DNA of 26,009 nucleotides from a virus (lineage: Duplodnaviria > Heunggongvirae > Uroviricota > Caudoviricetes): positions 1 to 26,009 of the IMG/VR virus record IMGVR_UViG_2695420653_000006; one strand, 5' to 3'. The translations under genes were made by a program, and so were the position numbers. The notes beneath the pieces are model-generated. The model saw only the letters and a list, made by a program, of their open reading frames with translations. It was not told where the DNA came from and searched no databases. The number at the start of each line of letters is the position of its first letter. Position 1 is the first letter of the stretch. Below are positions 16,698 through 26,009 of the stretch, one piece after another.

Positions 16698-18086
16698 ATG
16701 GCTACTTGGCAAGGAACAAATGGCGGATTGTTGGCTGGTATCGGTGGCGTCAACTCAAACGCTCCGAGCGTAAATGACATCGGCAATACGCTTCAGCTTA
16801 TCAGGCAGAACAATGATATTGAGCGTTCAGGCGCTAACAATGTTGGGCTGACTGCTTTGCAAGGCCTTTCAGGTATTGCGGGGGTGTTTCAGCAGACAAA
16901 GCAGGCTCAGCGGCAGAAAGAATTTCAGCAGGCATACGCTAATGCTTATGCGTCTGGTGATCGCGGTGCTTTGCGTCAGTTGGCTACTCAATATCCAGAC
17001 CAGATTGAATCCGTTCGTAAAGGCATGGGATTCATTGATGAAGACCAGCGTAATTCTATCGGCACCTTAGCGGCTGGCGCACGCCTTGCGTCATCGTCTC
17101 CAGAAGCAATGCAATCATGGCTGCAAAACAACGCCAAGGAACTGACTCGCGTCGGTGTTGACCCTAACAGCGTTGCTCAGATGTATCAGCAGAATCCTTC
17201 AGGATTTGGTGAGTTTGTTGATCACCTTGGAATGGCTGCTCTTGGTCCGATTGATTACTTCAATGTTCAGGACAAGATGGCTGGTCGTGAGATTGATCGC
17301 GGAAAACTTGCAGAGACAATCCGCAGCAATCAGGCTGGCGAGGCGCTAACAGCACGAGGACAGAACATCACGATGCGCGGTCAGGACTTATCTGCTTCTA
17401 CTGCGCGACGCGGGCAGGATTTGGCAATGCAGCGAGCGTCAACAAGAGGAACTGCTGGTAATGATGAGCGTACAGTTCAGTTATCAGATGGCAGAACTGT
17501 AACGGTAGGCGGGAAACTTCACGGCGCTGGGGCAAATGCGTTCTACGAAGGCATCGACAACGAGGGGAATATGGTTCGCGTTCCTGCCAGTTCAATCGCA
17601 TCGCCTGCAACATCGTCTGCATCAGCACAAAACTATGCCATGAAGAAGGATATCGACGCGATCGCAAATGCAGATGCTTCTGCTCTCGATTTCATGACAG
17701 GAATGACCGGCGGCGCAGGTAACCCGGCAATTGGTGCTGATGTTCGCAGCCGATTAACAGGAAAAGAGCAGCGCCAGTTATATAACTCAGCACAACGTAT
17801 TCAGGGAAGAATGCAGAATCAGGGCGTGGCGGCAGCAAGGGACATGGGTGCCAGTGGTATTAACACCGTTGCAGAAGCGAAGATGTATTTTCAGGGGATG
17901 CCGCAGGTTGACTATTCAAGCCCGGAGGCTATGCAGCAGTCGATTCGTGAGATTCAGGAATACACCAACAATTATAACCAACAATATAACGTTAATGTTG
18001 GTAAATCTCAGCGGCAGCAATCTCAACCTGCACAGGTATCACAGCCAGCAGCCAGCAGTAACTTTTCTTCACTATGGGGTGATTAA
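16698..18086 (+). CDS. Ejection (injection) protein, P22 gp20-like
   Basis: 462 aa; order gp7-gp20-gp16 conserved; SD AAGGGG upstream. Confidence 0.8.
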
Positions 18087-20083
18087 TGGCTAAAGCATGG
18101 AAAGATGTTATCTCCTCTCCACAGTATCAGGCGTTAGCACCAGAACAAAAAGCGCAGGCTCAGGAGCAATACTTCAATGAAGTCGTTGCCCCGCAAGCCG
18201 GAGAAAATGCAGAGCAGGCTAAGCAAGCTTTCTATGCTGCCTATCCATTGCCATCTGTGCAGCCAGTGGAGACACAACAACCAGTAGCACAGCAACAACC
18301 ACAGCAAAGTGGATTTATGTCTGATCTTGGTGAAGCAGTAAAAGAGACTGGTCGCGGACTGGTGCAGGCTGGCGTGAACGTGGCAAACATACCTGCATCA
18401 GTTGCCGATGCTGTAACAAGCGCGGCGGCTTGGGCTGGCGGTAAACTTGGCATTGGCGATGGGACATATCAACCAGCGCCACGAGTAACAACGCAGGGAT
18501 TAGAGCAGGACTTTGGCCTTCAGCAAGGTGCGCTGACTCCACAAACGACAGAGGGAAGGGTGTTTGCTGAAGCATTGCCTTACCTCACTCCTGCTGGCGT
18601 TGAGAGAGCGGCGGTACAGGCGCCAACACTTGCTGGTCGAATTGCTCAGGGGGCAACTCGCCTTCTAGCAGAAAACGCAGTTGGATCACTTGCTGCAAAT
18701 AGTGCGAAAGATGATGCGGAAGCACTCGCCACCGATTTAGGCGTTGGTGTACTTGCTGGCGGTGCTATTAACGCTTCCGGACGTGGATTAGGTGCTGCTT
18801 ATCGTGGCGTTCGTGGTGCTATCGCGCCAGAAGCGCAGCAGGCTATCAGATTTGCAGAGCGTGAAGGAGTTCCTCTGCACACCACAGACCTGTTACAACC
18901 AACTTCCCGCGTCGGAAAAATGGCGCAGACTACAGCAGAAAATATCCCTCTGGCTGGCACAAGCGGAATGAGATCAACGCAACAGGAAGCGAGAAGCCAG
19001 TTGGTGCAGAGATTTGCTGATAAATTCGGTGAGTATGATCCAGCTGTTGTTATTGACAGCCTTAAAGCGAAAACATCAGGAATTCGTCGTGCCGCCGGTA
19101 ATCGACTGGAGCAGGTACAGAATGCAATGGCAGGAATCAACATTCAACCTGCCAGAGCAATTCAGCAGATAGATACTGAGATATCTAACCTGCAGAAGCT
19201 TGGTAAGGTTGCTGATAACGAGACTATTTCAAAACTTCAGTCCTATCGTGATGAGCTTGTTCGCAATGCTAGTCCTGATGGTCCGGTAAATCTGGATTTG
19301 AAGCAATTAAGCGATCTGCGCAGCCAGTTCAGAATGGACGTGAAGGGGGAACGACCAGTGTTACCAAACCGTTCCGATGCTGCCATTCAGCGCGTTTACA
19401 AGGCGATGACAGACGATATCAATGGTGCCATTGGTCAGAATCTTGGCAACGATACTCTCCGTAAATATCAGCAGGCCAATGCCGTCTACGCTGACGAAGC
19501 GGCGAAACTAAAGAATACCAGGCTGAAGAATGTTCTCATGAAAGGCGACCTGACGCCGGAAGTTGTCAACAACATGCTATTCAGCAAGAACAAATCGGAA
19601 ATTAAGACGCTGTATAACTCAGTTGGTCGTGTTGGCAGGGCGCAAATGCGCAATGGCATCATTGGAAAGGCGATGGAGAAATCAGGTGGTTCCCCTGATC
19701 AGTTCCTTCGACAGCTTAACATCCTGCAAAACCAGACTGGCATCACATTTAAGGGGCAGGACGCTGCTTATCTGAAAGGATTGAAAAACTACCTGCAATC
19801 CACGCAGCAGGCTGCAAAAGCGGCAGTAACAACACCAACAGGGCAGCAAACCATCCCGTTCATTATCGGGTATGGGACAGCAATGAACCCGGCGACAACT
19901 GGCGCAGCGGTAAGCTACGGACTTCTTACTCGCGCCTATGAGAGCGAGCCATTCAGAAATGCAATGCTCCGAATGGCAAACACCCAACGCGGATCAACAG
20001 CGTTTGAGAAAGCCATGCAGCAGGCGCAAAAGGCCATTAACGCCCTGACTCAAGGTGCCAAGTCTGATGCGTTGTCAGAATAG
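18086..20083 (+). CDS. Ejection (injection) protein, P22 gp16-like
   Basis: 665 aa; last gene of the + strand ejection-protein trio; start overlaps previous stop (TAATG). Confidence 0.8.
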   Translation: MAKAWKDVISSPQYQALAPEQKAQAQEQYFNEVVAPQAGENAEQAKQAFYAAYPLPSVQPVETQQPVAQQQPQQSGFMSDLGEAVKETGRGLVQAGVNVANIPASVADAVTSAAAWAGGKLGIGDGTYQPAPRVTTQGLEQDFGLQQGALTPQTTEGRVFAEALPYLTPAGVERAAVQAPTLAGRIAQGATRLLAENAVGSLAANSAKDDAEALATDLGVGVLAGGAINASGRGLGAAYRGVRGAIAPEAQQAIRFAEREGVPLHTTDLLQPTSRVGKMAQTTAENIPLAGTSGMRSTQQEARSQLVQRFADKFGEYDPAVVIDSLKAKTSGIRRAAGNRLEQVQNAMAGINIQPARAIQQIDTEISNLQKLGKVADNETISKLQSYRDELVRNASPDGPVNLDLKQLSDLRSQFRMDVKGERPVLPNRSDAAIQRVYKAMTDDINGAIGQNLGNDTLRKYQQANAVYADEAAKLKNTRLKNVLMKGDLTPEVVNNMLFSKNKSEIKTLYNSVGRVGRAQMRNGIIGKAMEKSGGSPDQFLRQLNILQNQTGITFKGQDAAYLKGLKNYLQSTQQAAKAAVTTPTGQQTIPFIIGYGTAMNPATTGAAVSYGLLTRAYESEPFRNAMLRMANTQRGSTAFEKAMQQAQKAINALTQGAKSDALSE

Positions 20084-20173
20084 CCTTTCAAACACCAGGA
20101 ACGTGCAAAAACCAAATATGTAGAACGCGAGGTTTATCGTATTCCTCTGCATAGGCGATACCTTTGCTGATTG

Positions 20174-20659
20174 TTATCTGATGTTACTGCTACTGTTGCA
20201 TGTGACTGTATTTCCAAACCCTGAATTGCAGTTTGTGTAAGTGTCAACTCGTGTTGGATAGGGTTGAGTTATAACAGGCTGTCTCGCTTTTTGCTCGATC
20301 GCTTGCATTGTGTTTACAGCCTGATAATTCAATAAAGCCTGCTGGAATGCTTGGCTTTGTGCTATTTGTTGTGCTTGTTCTTGGCTTTGTAATTGAACAT
20401 AAAGATTCTGAAGCTCAAGTCTTGCCTGTGCGTCACTTATCTTGCCTTCATCGACACCTTGCCCGAGCATCTTTGCAGCAAGGACATACAGTTTAGGTGT
20501 TGGTGCTGATGCCATGCGTGAGTCGTTCTTCACACTGGCATCAAGGCAATTAGCCATATCGCTAAGCTTTTGATAGCGTTGTTCGCAACTTGCTTGATAG
20601 TCACTTACTTTTGCGCATCCAACCAGCAGAAGCGGGATAATTAACAGTGATTTTTTCAT
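20174..20659 (-). CDS. Predicted lipoprotein (161 aa), candidate superinfection-exclusion/moron gene in the sieA position
   Basis: ATG at 20659 preceded by AAGGAGAG; signal peptide with lipobox MKKSLLIIPLLLVGC; Q-rich helical middle; C-terminal Cys pair (TNCNSGFGNTVTC). The upstream in-frame start at 20695 has no RBS. No family recognised. Confidence 0.65.
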   Translation of the reverse strand: MKKSLLIIPLLLVGCAKVSDYQASCEQRYQKLSDMANCLDASVKNDSRMASAPTPKLYVLAAKMLGQGVDEGKISDAQARLELQNLYVQLQSQEQAQQIAQSQAFQQALLNYQAVNTMQAIEQKARQPVITQPYPTRVDTYTNCNSGFGNTVTCNSSSNIR

Positions 20660-20729
20660 ATGGTTAACTCTCCTTAGTTTTTCACAGGATATCATGAAGG
20701 CAATGCCATTTTAGCCGGAAGCTAGATTT

Positions 20730-20999
20730 CTATGTTTCCTTTTTATTATTGCTATACATGGTCTTAAGCGTTTCAAAAACCATTTTCTTAACCATATCAG
20801 ATTGTTGTTCTGCCATACGCTCTGCATCGTCAATGTAAACTGATACAGAGCTTTGTTTAGCCAATGATTCTTCAATCGCTGCAATTATCTCTGAGTTCAG
20901 CGACCTGTTATTCATCTTCGCACGCTGTTTAATTTTCGCGTGAAGTTCATGCGGAAGTCTCAAGTGAAACTGCGCCTCGTCGTATTTGCTGTACATCAT
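20730..20999 (-). CDS. mnt: Mnt-like ribbon-helix-helix repressor (Arc/MetJ superfamily)
   Basis: Translation from Met at 20999 (MMYSKYDEAQFHLRLPHELHAKIKQRAKMNNRSLNSEIIAAIEESLAKQSSVSVYIDDAERMAEQQSDMVKKMVFETLKTMY...) aligns with P22 Mnt (…NGRSMNSELLQIVQDAL…DAERLADEQSELVKKMVFDTLK…) from memory; GAGG SD upstream. Confidence 0.8.
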   Translation of the reverse strand: MMYSKYDEAQFHLRLPHELHAKIKQRAKMNNRSLNSEIIAAIEESLAKQSSVSVYIDDAERMAEQQSDMVKKMVFETLKTMYSNNKKET

Positions 21000-21127
21000 T
21001 GATGCCTCACCAGTTGGGTGGAATGGCATCGTAACCTACTGGATAAATACTCAATAGTACCATTTCGGTATGCAATCACATCATGGTTGCATCATATCAT
21101 TCGTCTGGAGCAATGAAATGTCAGATA

Positions 21128-21628
21128 TCACCTACTCAACAGATGGTCAGCAACCATGTTTGCTGCCTTATAAGCTATAGCAGCTTCATCAATGGTGTTG
21201 AATCTCCCAAGGGTTATGTTTTTACCTGAGACATTTATCTGAGCTTGCCATTGATTTCTGGCTTGACAGAAAGTTACCCCCTTGATTCCAGCATTGCTAT
21301 TTCGAGGTCCGACATTTAATGCATTTACGACTCTGCTGACATCCCTAAGGTTTGAGATTGCGTTATTTCTTCTGTTTCTATCAATGTGGTCAATCTCTTG
21401 TTTTGGCCATTCGCCATATACATACAGCCAGGCAAGTCTATGTGCAAAATATCTTACGCCATCAATATTAATTGCGTTATATCCATAAGAAATTGTGCCA
21501 GCAACTTTCCCAACAGCACCTCTGGCGCTTAATTTCTTTTTCCAAGTGAAAATTCCTGTTTCTTTATTGTAATCGAGAACCTCCATAAGGCGCTCCCGAG
21601 TTACTACCTCGTGACGTCTCTTACTCAT
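21128..21628 (-). CDS. HNH endonuclease with AP2-type DNA-binding domain (free-standing homing-endonuclease-like)
   Basis: Translation from ATG 21628 (SD GGAG): HNH motif region [18 protein letters not shown] followed by an AP2-like domain ([40 protein letters not shown]); AT-rich codon usage. Confidence 0.75.
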
Positions 21629-21641
21629 TATTTTCTCCGGA

Positions 21642-23486
21642 ATGTTTATTATGCCAGAACAATTATACAACGTTGTTGTTTCACAACCAAGTCAGTTATT
21701 TACTTTAGCTCGCTCGTTTAAAGCAAATGCCAATGGCAAAATTTATATCGGTAAAATTGACACTGACCCTGTAAATCCTGAAAACCAGATTCAGGTTTAT
21801 GTGGAAAACGAAGACGGCTCTCATGTTCCTGTATCGCAACCAATCATCATTAATGCTGCTGGTTACCCTGTATATAACGGACAGATTGCCAAGTTCGTAA
21901 CTGTGCAAGGCCATTCTATGGCTGTTTATGATGCATATGGTGCGCAGCAGTTCTATTTTCCGAATGTGTTAAAATATGACCCAGATCAGGCATATTATCG
22001 TGCTGAAAAAGACATTAAAAGATCTGGCGCTATCGAAACAAAAATACAAGACGCTATTAATTCATCCGTCTCAGGTCAGACGGTGTTAACAATTAATGAA
22101 GATGAGGTTGTTGATTCTATTAACAATGATTATGGTGTGGAAATCGATGCTAGAAGGGGAAGAGTTTTTAATAGAGATGGTGTCCAGTTATCAACATACA
22201 CAAATCCGAGGAATAGATTTGTTATAGGTCAAGAGTATTTAAATTATGTTACAAATAAACTTATTAACGGTGACGGAGTAACTTCAGATAAAAAAACATA
22301 TATTTTATGGTCTGGAGACTCCACTATAGTTGGTGTAAACTCTGAGTCATGGCCTCCAGCCACTATCGCTGATTTTTATGCAAAAAGGTATGGAATTATT
22401 GATGTAAAAAATACATCGTTAGGTCATTCAGGTAAAACTCTATACGAATGGGGTAATTGGTATATTGATCAGGAATGGTCTGTTTTTTCTGCTGCTGATT
22501 TGATTGTTTTACGATGGGGAATTAACGATCCATATTATGGTTATACATTGGATCAAGTAAAAGACGCATTAGATAGAGGTCTTTCCAAGTTACGAAATAA
22601 CAAATCAGTTTCCCAGCAATCAATTATTATCATGTCCCCAAACTCAACATCAGACACACCAAACGGACGTGATGAAAAATGGTATGAACAGTTAACAGCC
22701 GTGCTTAGAGCTAAAGCTAAAAAATATAAGTGCATGTTTTTTGACACTTACGGTATGTGGCAGGATTCCAGAGGCGCAGCAGGTAACTGGCTTGATAATC
22801 CATATGGGGATGGTCGCGGAATTCATCCAAATTATGTTTTTAGCGCCCAAATTCACCATGAGTTACTTGATTACATATATGGCCCATGCAAAGTAGTAAA
22901 TGGAAGTTCTAATTTATTTTCTAACAATGGTTCATCTTTGCAATTTGTTGGTAGTTCATATCCACCAAATACGTTTCATATGGGGACTTCATGGTGGAGA
23001 ACAAATCCTGATGATTCTTCTTGGCCTCTTGATGGTGTTATTCAGGTCGATAGATTTGTTGATGGAGTAGTGTTGCAAAAATTATATGGATATATATCTG
23101 AAAGTAGCAGAGTGTGTTTTACTCGCATAGGAAGGATAAGTGAGAACACATGGTCACAGTGGCGTGGTAAGCAATATGAAATATCTGGCCTGTTACAAAA
23201 TGGATGGGTTATAGGAGAATCAAGGAAAGGGACATACCAAAAATCTCTGGATGGTATTATAAATATAAATTGCGTTTTAACTGGAGGGGCAACTTCTGTT
23301 GGAACGGTTATAATGAATCTTCCTTCAGGGTTCAGGCCAGAAAAAGATATATCTTATATACCTTGTGGAACAAACAATGCTATAGCACTGATCAATATTT
23401 CGGCTAACGGAAATGTTACAATTCAATCATTTCCGTCAGGTTCTGTTCTTACTATAGCAACATCATTCCCATCAATGGTTGATTGA
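21642..23486 (+). CDS. Tailspike protein: P22-type head-binding N-domain fused to an SGNH/GDSL-hydrolase (esterase) receptor-binding domain
   Basis: Residues about 20-115 match the conserved P22 gp9 head-binding domain ([38 protein letters not shown]...[15 protein letters not shown]...NVLKYDPDQ). Downstream, SGNH blocks in canonical order: GDS ([11 protein letters not shown], Ser227 codon near 22320), G block (LGHSG), GxND (LRWGINDP), DxxH (DGRGIHPN). Strongly AT-rich after the N-domain. Confidence 0.85.
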
Positions 23487-23607: not shown

Positions 23608-24765
23608 TCACTCCACCTTTTCATCAAGCCAGTCCGCCCACCACTGCATCATTTCTCTGCGCTTATCGAGATACTGAGCATGGTTGTAAATACCGCGCAC
23701 AGATCCACCGTTGGCATGTGCAAGTTGCACTTCAATAGCGTCAGCAGGCCATTCGTGCTCGTTCATAATCGTGCTGAATTCATGCCTGAATCCGTGACCG
23801 CTTTCCAGACCCTCATAGCCGATTTGTTTGATCACAAGCAATACCGCGTTCTCGCAGATTGGCTTCTTCTTATCGTTACGCCCGGCAAAAACAAACTCTG
23901 ATACTGGTTTGGTGATGGAGCTTAACGTAGTGAGAAGTTCAACCACCTGGTCTGACATCGGGACCACATGAATTTTGCGTCCCTTCATCACACTGGCGTC
24001 GATGGTGATAATCCTGTTTTCAAAATCGACGTTCTTCCATTGCATGGAACGAAGCTCTTTTGTTCTGAGGGCTGTGTAGCGTAAAACTTTGGTCGCAATG
24101 AGCGATACGATACTTCCTGAAAATGTTGCCAGTGCTTTGTTGAATGCAGGGATCTGGTCTGCAGGCAGAAACGGGAAGTTTTTCTTGCGGTATCCCTTCA
24201 TTGCGTCAGCAAGGTCAGGTGCCGGGTTATATTTAGCTCTGCCGGTGACAATAGCGTAACGGAAAACCTCGCCGCATCTTCTGCGTGCTTTGTTGGCTCG
24301 CTCCATTGCACCGCGATCTTCGAATCTGCGGATTACTTCCAGCAGTTGCATCGGCTCAATATCCTGAATCTCAAGACCGCCGATGATGGGTAAAATGTCG
24401 TCATCAAACATTTTGGCAAGTTCAGTCGCATATCCTACTGACCAGACTTGCTTCTTGTGCTCGTACCATTCCTTGTAAATGGCGCTAAAGGAATTGTTGT
24501 TAGACGAAGCCTTTTTCGCTTTTACCGGATCGATGCCAACCGAGATGTCTTTCCTCGCGGTCCATGCTTTATCTCTTGCCTCCTGCAAAGTCATTAGCGG
24601 ATATTTTCCTACGGTCAGGATTTTCTCCTTACCGTCAATCTTGTAGCGAAGCTGCCATACCTTTTTCCCGGATACAGGGACATAAAGGTACAGGCCATTA
24701 CCATCGAGAAGGCGGTATGGTTTTTCTTTCGGCTTTGCTGCTTCAATCTGCTTAACGGTGAGCAT
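23608..24765 (-). CDS. intS: Tyrosine integrase, P4-family, argW-targeting type (IntS-like)
   Basis: 385 aa from ATG 24765 (MLTVKQIEAAKPKEKPYRLLDGNGLYLYV... arm-binding N-domain); catalytic R…HxxR…Y signature (…RTKELRS…HGFRHEF…RGIYNHAQY); adjacent to the 3' end of argW. ORF track starts at an upstream GTG (24801) that I consider less likely. Confidence 0.88.
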   Translation of the reverse strand: MLTVKQIEAAKPKEKPYRLLDGNGLYLYVPVSGKKVWQLRYKIDGKEKILTVGKYPLMTLQEARDKAWTARKDISVGIDPVKAKKASSNNNSFSAIYKEWYEHKKQVWSVGYATELAKMFDDDILPIIGGLEIQDIEPMQLLEVIRRFEDRGAMERANKARRRCGEVFRYAIVTGRAKYNPAPDLADAMKGYRKKNFPFLPADQIPAFNKALATFSGSIVSLIATKVLRYTALRTKELRSMQWKNVDFENRIITIDASVMKGRKIHVVPMSDQVVELLTTLSSITKPVSEFVFAGRNDKKKPICENAVLLVIKQIGYEGLESGHGFRHEFSTIMNEHEWPADAIEVQLAHANGGSVRGIYNHAQYLDKRREMMQWWADWLDEKVE

Positions 24766-24926
24766 GGGTAAAAATCCGGTGGGTAAAATTATTTTATCCA
24801 CTTTTTACCCGTCATGGAGTGCGGCTGTCAACGATCTGAAGCGAACCATGACGAACTGTGAATCTACGGAAGGCTTGATATTCAGGGGATTTTGCGGACT
24901 AGCACGGATGGTAGCGAACTGATAAA

Positions 24927-25001
24927 TGGTGTCCCCTGCAGGAATCGAACCTGCAATTAGCCCTTAGGAGGGGCTCGTTATATCCATTTAACTAAGAGGA
25001 C
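24927..25001 (-). tRNA. argW: tRNA-Arg (anticodon CCU)
   Basis: Minus-strand sequence GTCCTCTTAGTTAAATGGATATAACGAGCCCCTCCTAAGGGCTAATTGCAGGTTCGATTCCTGCAGGGGACACCA folds as a cloverleaf: 7-bp acceptor stem, T-loop GGTTCGATTCC, anticodon loop CCUCCUAAG with CCU at 34-36, encoded CCA. Confidence 0.92.
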
Positions 25002-25076: not shown

Positions 25077-26009
25077 TTATGCTGGGTTTTTATCATTTTT
25101 CTTAATGTTTTCCGCACGTTCTGCTTTTTGGCGTGCTTCTGCTTTACGCTTGTTGCTCATGTCGTTACGAATCTGTGCATGACTCATTAACGCGAAGATA
25201 AAGGTGCCGCCGCAGATGTTCCCCGCTAAAGTAGGTAGTGCGAAGGGCCAGATGAAATCGCTCCAGTGCAGCGTGCCGTTAAACACCAGATAGAGGATTT
25301 CAACAGAACCGACAACGATGTGGGTGGTGTCACCCAGTGCAATAAGCCAGGTCATCAAAATAATCACCACAATCTTTGCCGCACCCGCTGCAGGAAACAT
25401 CCAAACCATAGTGGCGATCAGCCAGCCGGAAATGATCGCGTTGGCAAACATCTCGCTGGGGGTGTTCTTCATCACATCCATGCCGATTTTGACAAATGCA
25501 TCGCGAGTTTCTTCATTGAAGATAGGCATATATTCAAATGCCCATGCAGCAATACCTGTCCCGAGAATATTACCCAGCAGCACGACGCCCCATAATCGCA
25601 TAAGTAAGCCGACGTTGCTCATTGTCGGTTTTTGCATGACGGGTAGTACCGCAGTCACGGTGTTTTCGGTAAATAATTGCTGGCGGGCCATAATGACGAT
25701 AATAAAACCAAAGGTATAACCGAGATTCTCCAGTAAGAAGCTGCCTGGCACTCCTTCCAGTTCGACATGAAATATCCCTTTTGCCAGTAGCGAAGCGCCC
25801 ATCGACAGACCCGCCGCAATGGCTGACCACAGTAGCGCCATTGCGTCGCGTTCCAGCTCTTTTTCACCATCCTGGCGGATATGCTCATGAATTGCCATCG
25901 CCCGGGAGGGGAGTCGATCTTCATCTATTTCTATTTTTTTGCCGCGCTCTTTTTCTTCGCTCTCAACTTCAATTTCGTCGCTGTGTTGATCAATTTTGTC
26001 GTTGTCCAT
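25077..26009 (-). CDS. yfdC: Host inner-membrane protein YfdC (formate/nitrite transporter family)
   Basis: 310-aa polytopic membrane protein with multiple hydrophobic segments; I recognise it as E. coli YfdC, the known chromosomal neighbour of argW. Complete ORF ending at the window edge. Confidence 0.8.
   Translation of the reverse strand: MDNDKIDQHSDEIEVESEEKERGKKIEIDEDRLPSRAMAIHEHIRQDGEKELERDAMALLWSAIAAGLSMGASLLAKGIFHVELEGVPGSFLLENLGYTFGFIIVIMARQQLFTENTVTAVLPVMQKPTMSNVGLLMRLWGVVLLGNILGTGIAAWAFEYMPIFNEETRDAFVKIGMDVMKNTPSEMFANAIISGWLIATMVWMFPAAGAAKIVVIILMTWLIALGDTTHIVVGSVEILYLVFNGTLHWSDFIWPFALPTLAGNICGGTFIFALMSHAQIRNDMSNKRKAEARQKAERAENIKKNDKNPA

Follow-up and report, generated by a model that had tools for sequence, protein, structure and literature searches.

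What is a gene for an HNH nuclease doing head-to-head with the tailspike gene of a P22-like phage, on the antisense strand and a few base pairs from the tailspike start codon? The arrangement was noticed in a 26,009-nt stretch of viral DNA (Caudoviricetes; IMG/VR record IMGVR_UViG_2695420653_000006, positions 1 to 26,009), referred to here as the window. Our literature search found no paper on this HNH gene or on an HNH gene at the start of a P22-like tailspike gene. We analysed the reading frames, compared occupied and HNH-free alleles, and modelled the protein; the features concerned are listed in Table 1. The segment carrying the gene is in our judgement likely to be a cassette of the free-standing homing-endonuclease type that is specific to the very 5′ end of the P22-like tailspike gene. 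Mobile elements of this kind are commonplace; the position of this one is unusually well resolved and testable.

Table 1. Features around the HNH and tailspike start codons, in window coordinates.
Feature	Position	Strand	Basis
Mnt-type repressor gene, 3′ neighbour of the HNH gene	20730..21029	minus	Pfam Arc 3.7e-15, Repressor_Mnt 5e-12
Promoter-like site directed toward mnt, -35 (CTGACA) within the tailspike-start remnant	21096..21124	minus	consensus scan only, 9/12
Orphaned ancestral tailspike start, ATGTCAGATATCACC (MSDIT)	21104..21132	plus	identical to the intact start in HNH-free L001
HNH(HNN)-AP2 endonuclease gene, 166 aa	21128..21628	minus	Pfam, PHROG 99, I-HmuI alignment, AlphaFold
Mobile cassette, ~600 bp: antisense HNH gene, 22-bp spacer, new tailspike start and ~26 diverged codons	21133..~21730		allele comparison
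Spacer between the two start codons, 22 bp	21629..21650		direct sequence reading
Tailspike gene, 611 aa	21651..23486	plus	Pfam Head_binding 1.9e-64, Lipase_GDSL_2 2.6e-14
5′ tract of the tailspike gene, hyper-divergent with mostly synonymous changes, constant companion of this HNH gene	21651..21730	plus	comparison with HNH-free alleles
Candidate HNH promoter within tailspike codons	21662..21690	minus	predicted by custom scan

The HNH-AP2 protein and the two start codons

The minus-strand frame of the HNH gene is open from 21128 to 21670, and within it the ATG at 21628 is preceded by GGAG, the reverse complement of the CTCC at 21635-21638. This start has homology support: residues 9-14 (LTxERL) are conserved across 50 aligned sequences, and the RefSeq call for the protein, 152 aa from M15, is 14 residues short and cuts this motif. 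The protein matched Pfam HNH_3 over residues 60-103 (E=2.1e-16; 59.7 bits against a cut-off of 24.8) and PHROG 99, ‘HNH endonuclease’, at 7e-63, while its match to Pfam AP2 (E=3.6e-6; 27.6 bits) falls below the gathering score of 33.3. An AlphaFold model (pLDDT 86.7) was built from an alignment in which one row from another locus had been left out. It contains a beta-beta-alpha metal finger, with strands at 78-81 and 94-97 followed by a helix at 99-105, where pLDDT exceeds 90. The AP2 part, with strands at 118-121, 126-133 and 136-143 and a helix at 146-165, matches the plant AP2 domains of TEM1 and AtERF1 at 1.4-1.5 Å and 31-40% identity. On the model, the AP2 fold is confirmed despite the sub-gathering Pfam score.

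The top Foldseek match was 1u3e (probability 1.00), the structure of I-HmuI, an HNH nicking endonuclease of Bacillus phage SPO1, on which the model superposes over 96 columns with an rmsd of 3.5 Å. Sequence identity to this best structural match is only about 25%, and the sequence match is weak alone (E=0.07). Both proteins have the same HNN His-Me finger with its Asp-His…Asn…Asn…Asn set: D80, H81, N89, N93 and N102 align with D74, H75, N83, N87 and N96 of I-HmuI. Among 49-50 homologues D80, N89 and N93 are invariant, and H81 and N102 are at least 90% conserved. An earlier note on this DNA had assigned the protein to the HNH-AP2 type of free-standing homing endonucleases, to be withdrawn should the catalytic residues prove absent; they are intact, and both domain matches and the model fold agree with the assignment. 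The gene is best read, from these comparisons, as a free-standing homing endonuclease. We also considered a terminase-associated HNH protein of the HK97 gp74 kind and rejected it. That class lies next to the terminase and portal genes of cos-type phages, and P22-like phages package by headful; it is conserved in all relatives, whereas the gene here is absent from about 98% of related prophages and lies between mnt and the tailspike gene, at the far end of the late operon.

The tailspike gene encodes a head-binding domain followed by a GDSL/SGNH esterase-type receptor module, and, beginning at about residue 4-7, its N-terminal domain resembles the tailspike structures of Sf6 and P22. An in-frame ATG is also present at 21642. 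The start at 21651 appears better supported, because the Pfam Head_binding profile begins at residue 4 of the 21651 ORF, because all annotated homologues start at its equivalent, and because a stop codon lies just upstream of the equivalent ATG in two diverged variants (L046/L048). With this start the spacer is therefore 22 bp and not 13 bp as previously proposed; the head-to-head arrangement itself is real. It recurs in 15 of the 15 E. coli carriers, in 29 IMG/VR contigs and in Serratia, Mixta and Salmonella, and is therefore not due to chance. Within the spacer, CTCC gives the HNH gene its ribosome-binding site on the minus strand, and the palindrome TCCGGA (21636-21641), which overlaps it, provides a GGA for the tailspike ATG; the motif CTCCGG(A/G)A is retained in most diverged variants. 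As had been suspected, 22 bp leave no space for two promoters.

Cassette boundaries and the orphaned tailspike start

The earlier note had proposed that the HNH gene was an insertion whose limits could be found by comparison with relatives lacking it. Such relatives exist and define the boundaries. One HNH-free allele (L001, from E. coli EC01307) is 98% identical to the window up to 21132 and then resumes in the tailspike gene, so that the left break against HNH-free alleles falls at 21132/21133. The right end, placed by the rise in polymorphism among loci that carry this HNH gene, lies at about 21730. Immediately left of the break, a GGAG (21107-21110), an ATG at 21118 and five codons (ATGTCAGATATCACC) remain from the ancestral tailspike start and now open a 20-codon ORF only; the TGA stop of the HNH gene (21128-21130) lies inside this remnant. 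The allele comparison thus shows the cassette to sit after codon 5 of the ancestral tailspike gene, with its boundary 15 nt inside the tailspike ORF and not in the intergenic moron. The cassette has displaced the opening part of the tailspike coding sequence and makes up for it with a ribosome-binding site and an ATG of its own; the six codons that it brings (MPEQLY) run in frame into the conserved NVVV motif. Since the cassette brings a substitute start, the essential tailspike stays intact and the old start is orphaned. A lineage-specific remnant of the tailspike start was seen at the 3′ end of each HNH variant examined, and the orphaned ribosome-binding site and ATG upstream could be mistaken for the true tailspike start.

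On the far side of the remnant, mnt is also present in HNH-free L001 and belongs to the ‘ant moron’, outside the cassette. The idea that the HNH gene had replaced arc and ant did not survive the comparison: L001 has the same lipoprotein-mnt arrangement without arc and ant, and mnt, arc, ant and this HNH gene occur together in Kapi1 and at least eight other genomes. AT-richness had been offered as a further sign of insertion. GC content is 0.411 in the HNH gene, 0.407 in mnt, 0.423 in the lipoprotein gene, 0.397 in the head-binding part of the tailspike gene and 0.498 over bases 1-20083. The HNH gene is therefore AT-rich in comparison with the structural genes only. As it cannot be told apart in this respect from mnt, the lipoprotein gene or the head-binding segment, we discarded base composition as evidence of insertion.

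Distribution and spread of the cassette

A search of 5,426 complete E. coli genomes found the cassette in 15; it is also present in phage Kapi1, whose HNH protein (gp66) has 100% amino-acid identity to that of the window. The surrounding P22-like region is present in 1,154 of the same 5,426 genomes, and about 1.3% of the related E. coli prophages carry the HNH gene. Close relatives therefore hold occupied and empty alleles of one site, as is characteristic of homing endonucleases. Mean divergence from the window copy is 0.55% for the cassette versus 7.3% for the adjoining tailspike sequence, a difference of about 13-fold (Fisher p 1e-6 to 1e-15 per locus). In 31 further loci with this HNH gene, polymorphic sites number 1-3 per 50 nt up to 21732 and 9-19 beyond it, and the cassette is followed downstream by tailspikes of eleven different lengths. 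The divergence contrast and the varied tailspikes point to horizontal spread independent of the flanks.

A different history would make the HNH-AP2 gene an inactive or non-mobile passenger, long linked to the head-binding end of the tailspike gene, around which the ant moron and the receptor module recombine. The moron does turn over rapidly, sixteen genomes having ten types of it (PMC2629481), and the receptor module has a common breakpoint at 21966-21974 whether the HNH gene is present or absent; that breakpoint lies about 240 bp beyond the end of the cassette-linked tract near 21730. The association with the tailspike gene also extends over several genera: HNH orthologues of 67-84% identity sit at this position in Salmonella, Serratia, Mixta and uncultured phages. 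The insertion is accordingly not simply recent, as had been supposed, and long-standing vertical linkage to the head-binding domain could account in part for its presence at one site in several genera. We nevertheless regard the passenger history as unlikely. The cassette is 13-fold less diverged than sequence only 100-300 bp away, its catalytic residues are intact and conserved, few related E. coli prophages carry it, and its left junction is base-exact across contexts without upstream homology. The same junction (…ACC directly followed by TAC…) is found in at least four left contexts, namely ant with a terminator, mnt, an Arc-family gene, and gene 16 directly. The remnant reads MSDIT beside mnt and MTDIT elsewhere, and beside mnt it matches the local HNH-free allele. 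From the last remnant difference to the insert there is only ~3 nt of shared sequence, which excludes ordinary homologous crossover as the cause of the junction pattern. Furthermore, a second HNH-AP2 gene, 42% identical, lies at the identical junction in another 15 genomes, with both remnant types.

Decayed copies of the HNH gene were also found, one with a nonsense codon (EC06) and one truncated (30COLEC). These pseudogenes, in otherwise similar loci, bear on the proposal that the protein is a domesticated regulator, with an AP2 domain that adjusts the expression of tailspike or mnt by binding close to the tailspike start and a nuclease that is irrelevant or lost. The HNH gene does abut the tailspike start near a promoter-like site for mnt, and AP2 domains have repeatedly been co-opted as transcription factors, according to the passage on Magnani 2004 in PMC10448857. 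However, all nuclease residues are conserved and more than 98% of related prophages are without the gene, and together with the decayed copies this makes a regulatory role highly improbable.

Recoded tract, expression and related systems

The 5′ tract of the tailspike gene that accompanies this HNH gene differs from HNH-free alleles at 14 of 30 nt in codons 1-10, at 16 of 30 nt in codons 11-20 with 2 amino-acid changes only, and at 6 of 30 nt in codons 21-30; later blocks mostly differ at 0-3 of 30 nt from the nearest allele, L001. The HNH-free E. coli and Shigella alleles differ among themselves at 0-3 of 30 nt in codons 11-30. An origin of the tract from a Salmonella P22-type allele was rejected, since VSe13 is as distant (13/30 nt in codons 11-20) as the E. 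coli alleles. We regard the tract as a candidate ‘immune’ version of the endonuclease target, which probably protects its carrier from self-cleavage. It could instead be a foreign tailspike allele hitch-hiking with the HNH gene and not an immunity determinant; the second HNH type has no recoded tract beyond codon 7. In the homing model, the protein would act as a nuclease, of the HNN His-Me finger kind seen in I-HmuI, that binds DNA through a C-terminal AP2 domain. When HNH-carrying and HNH-free P22-like genomes share a cell, it would nick or cut the empty allele near the codon 5/6 junction, and repair from the occupied allele would copy in the HNH gene together with the adjacent ~80 nt of tailspike sequence. 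Recoding at synonymous sites would probably shield the carrier.

How the two genes are expressed was approached by promoter scanning. The candidate HNH promoter consists of a -35 element TTGGTT (21690-21685), a 17-nt spacer and a -10 element TATAAT (21667-21662), and its end lies 33 nt before the ATG. In 9 of 10 clade variants TATAAT, exact or at 5/6, is found 31-35 nt before the HNH start codon, and the Serratia copy (L055) has a TATAAT-type match at 40 nt. The tailspike frame that reads through the motif is not always the same, giving QLY in the window and II in L041. HNH-free Sf6 also has the hexamer here (ATTATA), from its Ile-Ile codons. This weakens the conserved TATAAT as clean promoter evidence, and its conservation may owe something to the native Asp-Ile-Ile codons. 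A promoter within the opening codons of the tailspike gene probably drives the HNH gene. On the plus strand, no acceptable sigma-70 site was found inside the HNH gene, the best scoring 8/12 with a 19-nt spacer and overlapping the start codon. This argues against a tailspike promoter within the HNH coding sequence, one of two routes put forward earlier, and favours the other, late read-through. In the published model for P22, late transcription reads through the ant moron into gene 9, the tailspike gene (PMC2629481). Antiterminated late-operon polymerase would likewise pass through the moron here and, with the cassette in place, over the antisense HNH gene as well. The scanned region shows no excess of promoter-like sites (7 found versus 12.6 expected).

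A promoter candidate of sigma-70 type, independent of late functions, would also suit a nuclease made in the lysogen that cuts the tailspike gene of superinfecting HNH-free P22-like phages, with homing as a by-product. The HNH gene has lysogen-expressed moron genes around it and points the same way as mnt, and its presumed target belongs to an essential gene that is nearly invariant among competitors. In most carriers, however, the gene is convergent with ant and not in an mnt operon, its rarity speaks against a strong protective benefit, and PADLOC returned no defence-system match for the protein, its sole match being a generic ‘homing endonuclease’ model (E=2.2e-7). We consider exclusion as the main function to be quite improbable. 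A broader and admittedly speculative picture, to which we give a modest chance, combines the two roles. The tailspike 5′ end would be a landing pad for which at least two HNH-AP2 lineages compete at a single junction. The nuclease, made in the prophage from a promoter concealed among the tailspike codons, would be both homing element and superinfection weapon against the tailspike gene of incoming HNH-free relatives, and its breaks would reshuffle the ant moron and the tailspike. If so, break-seeded recombination would affect host-range evolution.

Among known enzymes, I-HmuI is intron-encoded, whereas the HNH gene here stands alone and runs antisense to the gene that it occupies. I-HmuI reportedly binds DNA through helical and helix-turn-helix modules and not through AP2. 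The N-terminal HNN and C-terminal AP2 architecture is that of a class of free-standing phage endonucleases (Magnani et al. 2004) with members in Xanthomonas phages Xp10, OP1 and Xop411, the hegs of T5, T1 and RB16, and IPA-HNH of ICP1; the conserved boxes HRLAW, WP, DH, NN, NLR and N are common to this class and the protein here. By tblastn, relatives turned up in 3,209 phage records, and one genome frequently had several. T5-, RB16- and T1-like phages have multiple copies of the family, there annotated as homing endonucleases (PMC2248197, PMC10448857), and the Xanthomonas genes were reported to be dispersed without conserved flanks (PMC2248197). In contrast to the latter, the clade described here is single-copy, at one exact site and with defined empty alleles.

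In the intronless homing of T4 (SegF, SegG, MobE) and in Aeh1, where mobE splits nrdA, a free-standing endonuclease gene likewise lies beside or inside a conserved essential gene. The T4 cases and the cassette have in common an empty allele in relatives, polymorphism beside the insertion and linked markers that are carried along (for a general account of intronless homing by free-standing endonucleases, see PMC10448857). Those enzymes are GIY-YIG or other HNH proteins of lytic T4-like phages, whereas the host here is temperate and P22-like. The T4 class splits a protein or is intergenic; the cassette, known here from sequence, lies inside the 5′ coding end and brings a substitute start codon. 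P22, Sf6 and HK620 are model phages with excellent genetics, and Kapi1, which carries exactly this HNH protein, is cultivable; the HNH gene and Kapi1 offer a natural system for homing in temperate phages. The cassette bears on how a selfish gene can settle in the coding start of an essential gene by way of a spare start codon, and on whether such nucleases mark or create the recombination boundaries at which tailspike host-range modules are swapped. Its genomic neighbourhood is that of the ant moron (gene 16 to gene 9), whose AT-rich genes are optional and in many cases oriented against the late operon (PMC2629481), and the cassette moves independently of moron type, be it ant, mnt-only or none.

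Tailspike start and gene neighbourhood

The final part of the window belongs to a P22-like prophage (Lederbergvirus-type), of which it is the right arm; here the interval between genes 16 and 9 corresponds to the 'ant moron' of Casjens and colleagues (PMC2629481). The cassette found here is that of a free-standing HNN-AP2 homing endonuclease, whose biochemical activity we infer; it is lodged just inside the tailspike gene, at the 5' end of the coding sequence, and brings a spare tailspike start codon. It is well delimited and new, though homing endonucleases of the HNN-AP2 kind are already known.

Features of the prophage right arm
Feature	Position	Strand
gp16-like ejection protein	18086-20083	+
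Lipoprotein gene, function not assigned	20174-20695	-
Mnt-type repressor gene	20730-21029	-
Inverted repeat ATGCAATCA/TGGTTGCAT	21070-21092	
Promoter-like site pointing toward mnt	21096-21124	
Tailspike-start remnant ATGTCAGATATCACC	21118-21132	
20-codon ORF at the orphaned ATG	21118-21180	+
HNH-AP2 ORF	21128-21628	-
Tailspike gene (preferred start)	21651-23486	+
IntS-type integrase	23608-24801	-
tRNA-Arg(CCT) (argW)	24927-25001	-
yfdC	25077-26009	-

A megablast search of 5,426 complete E. coli genomes with 19900-22100 located the surrounding P22-like region in 1,154 of them, the majority of matches aligning as two pieces with ~530 bp skipped. In the HNH-free E. coli EC01307 (L001) the tailspike gene directly follows mnt; the window is 98% identical to this locus over 19900-21132, breaks, and aligns again from 21699. 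Comparison with an HNH-free relative, as the earlier note had proposed, resolves the insertion boundary. The 15 nt before the break are codons 1-5 of the intact EC01307 tailspike gene and are preceded by the same GGAG in both, so the window retains an orphaned ancestral tailspike start, within which the HNH stop codon TGA (21128-21130) falls. On the tailspike side of the HNH gene, the cassette brings its own ATG and six replacement codons (MPEQLY), which continue in frame into a conserved NVVV. The substitution is tolerated because the replaced residues precede the head-binding portion alignable to the solved Sf6 and P22 structures. The orphaned ribosome-binding site and ATG open a 20-codon ORF running antisense into the HNH 3' end; ribosomes on late transcripts would presumably initiate at this ATG.

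The HNH start at 21628 is upheld by a GGAG ribosome-binding site and by the motif LTxERL (residues 9-14), conserved among homologues. RefSeq WP_158003932.1 (L004, L006-L011), the product of NCBI's annotation pipeline, has the endonuclease begin at Met15 (152 aa; window 21586-21628) and so lacks this motif; the 166-aa form is used by phage Kapi1 and two genomes (WP_021538724.1). The tailspike start, earlier put at 21642, is better placed at 21651: in the longer ORF the Pfam Head_binding profile begins at residue 4, the equivalent of 21651 is the start in every annotation examined, and diverged variants carry a stop codon immediately upstream of the equivalent ATG. The spacer is then 22 bp rather than 13, and still much too small for two promoters.

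The earlier note required either late read-through or a promoter inside the HNH gene for tailspike expression. This dilemma largely dissolves, because in P22 the polymerase from the late promoter continues across the ant moron and on into gene 9 (PMC2629481). Other genes of the moron, mnt among them, already run antisense to the late transcript, and in the empty EC01307 allele the annotated mnt gene, which is divergent, lies just 121 bp from the tailspike start. Inside the HNH gene, a scan for plus-strand sigma-70 sites gave none that was credible. The sole reasonable candidate for an HNH promoter (TTGGTT, 17 nt, TATAAT) lies within tailspike codons; its -10 occupies 21667-21662 and ends 33 nt before the HNH ATG. 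In 9 of 10 variants TATAAT, or a 5/6 match to it, precedes the ATG by 31-35 nt, the distance in the Serratia copy being 40 nt. Read as tailspike sequence, the hexamer falls in two different frames; one variant (L046) reads TTGGCA-17-TATAAT. As HNH-free Sf6 also has ATTATA at this position, the pattern is suggestive only.

The 173-aa predicted product of the lipoprotein gene has a signal peptide (LLVGC), gave zero matches in a Pfam search and matches PHROG 6067 (function not known; 2e-110). Its gene, a moron gene adjoining mnt, occurs in many E. coli prophages but is missing from VE-T9. The mnt start is ambiguous between the first ATG (99 aa) and that of RefSeq homologues (88 aa, 267 bp). The inverted repeat between mnt and the remnant may be an Mnt operator. 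The promoter-like site directed toward mnt has its -35 inside the remnant start codon region, so that mnt expression here may depend in part on the remnant being kept.

Architecture of the HNH-AP2 protein

In Pfam the 166-aa product matches HNH_3 (E=2.1e-16); its match to AP2 (E=3.6e-6) scores 27.6 bits, short of the gathering score of 33.3 bits. An AlphaFold model built from 49 sequences (mean pLDDT 86.7) has a beta domain at its N-terminus, then a beta-beta-alpha finger (78-105), and finally a helix alongside a three-stranded sheet (118-165). Its top PDB matches are I-HmuI, the SPO1 intron-encoded nicking endonuclease (96 columns), and plant AP2 domains (1.4-1.5 Å), and this predicted fold secures the AP2 assignment, bearing out the proposed HNH-AP2 architecture. 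D80, H81, N89, N93 and N102 align with the I-HmuI active-site residues D74, H75, N83, N87 and N96; in the family alignment each of them is either invariant or conserved at 90% or more. The catalytic residues are present, and their constellation is intact. The HNN-AP2 class is described by Magnani 2004, as cited in PMC10448857.

Evidence for mobility, and relatives in other genera

The cassette DNA is present once in each of 15 of the 5,426 E. coli genomes (identity at least 98.8%), and the protein it encodes has the same sequence as the HNH endonuclease annotated in Kapi1. Its left neighbour is ant with a terminator (Kapi1/MP1, Combat2C1, A39, FDAARGOS_1256, LI60C3, GB089, AR_0118, 23CRST044, GN04171), a Mnt/Arc-family gene (the window, VE-T9, EC06, AR_0058) or gene 16 itself (GF66.2, PSS-11). 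Together with EC01307, the Kapi1-type loci rule out the suggestion that the HNH gene replaced arc/ant. Nor does composition mark an insertion, its GC of 0.411 equalling that of neighbouring genes. The downstream tailspikes have eleven lengths (596 to 981 aa), and the prophages use more than one attachment site; that of the window is argW, as in Kapi1 (IntS-type integrase, tRNA-Arg(CCT), yfdC; 23608-25001). Decayed copies carry a Tyr-to-stop change (EC06, L002 3454-3954) or a 3' truncation by deletion (30COLEC, L017).

All carriers examined share the junction …ACC|TACTCAACAG…. Beside mnt the remnant is ATGTCAGATATCACC, equal to the local empty allele's start; in other contexts it is ATGACAGACATTACC, resembling a P22/Gally/Sf6-type start. 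Only ~3 common bases lie between the last remnant difference and the insert, so ordinary homologous exchange cannot have moved the gene between backgrounds, and break-induced, site-specific insertion fits better. Across 31 further loci, mean difference from the window is 0.55% in the cassette (21133-21730) and 7.3% in the next 205 nt of tailspike, polymorphic sites per 50 nt rising from 1-3 to 9-19 at ~21730. Homology is lost at 21966-21974 in all loci (in one at 21936), the joint between head-binding and receptor modules. The HNH gene may promote exchange of the receptor module, as the earlier note suggested; the tract linked to the gene ends ~240 bp before this joint.

In E. coli M160133 (L003 2729-3238) another HNH-AP2 gene, of 169 aa and with 42% identity in the core, is likewise inserted after tailspike codon 5, its left junction coinciding exactly; a tailspike start of HK620 type (MTDSINA) comes next. 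This second element, seen also at L061-L064, is carried by 15 of the 5,426 genomes; it lies behind ant in some loci and mnt in others, and either type of remnant can accompany it. Relatives of the window protein in 10 IMG/VR contigs (76-81% identity) and in Salmonella, Serratia marcescens and Mixta calida (67-84%) all have a tailspike gene of the Head_binding type back to back with them, and those checked have a lineage-specific GGAG-ATG remnant at the HNH 3' end; the next relatives (at most 53%) are located elsewhere. Given a position kept across genera, the gene is more than the recent insertion that the earlier note suggested. In other phages, one endonuclease gene taking over the site of another has been described, and so have nuclease genes lying where recombination boundaries fall (PMC10448857).

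Recoded tract and receptor module

Compared in ten-codon blocks with five HNH-free E. coli/Shigella-type alleles (L001, L019, L018, L020, L003), the window tailspike shows 11-17 differences per 30 nt in codons 1-10, 16-17 in codons 11-20 with only 2-3 amino-acid changes, and 5-9 in codons 21-30. Later blocks show mostly 0-3 against EC01307, and as many as 8 when the comparison is with Sf6 and Gally, whose alleles are more distant. Among themselves the HNH-free alleles vary by just 0-3 nt per 30 over codons 11-30. A putative target conserved in empty alleles, set beside its heavy and mostly silent recoding in carriers, is the pattern that target-site immunity should give. The tract could also be a foreign tailspike allele hitch-hiking with the HNH gene.

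Solved structures match the window tailspike by sequence in its head-binding domain only. The receptor-binding part (21996-23486) contains a GDSL/SGNH esterase domain (Lipase_GDSL_2, Pfam, 2.6e-14; residues ~225-397 of the 614-aa ORF), where the Salmonella relative has a glycosidase domain, the P22 tailspike family (PF09251). This suggests that the window tailspike is O-antigen-deacetylating.
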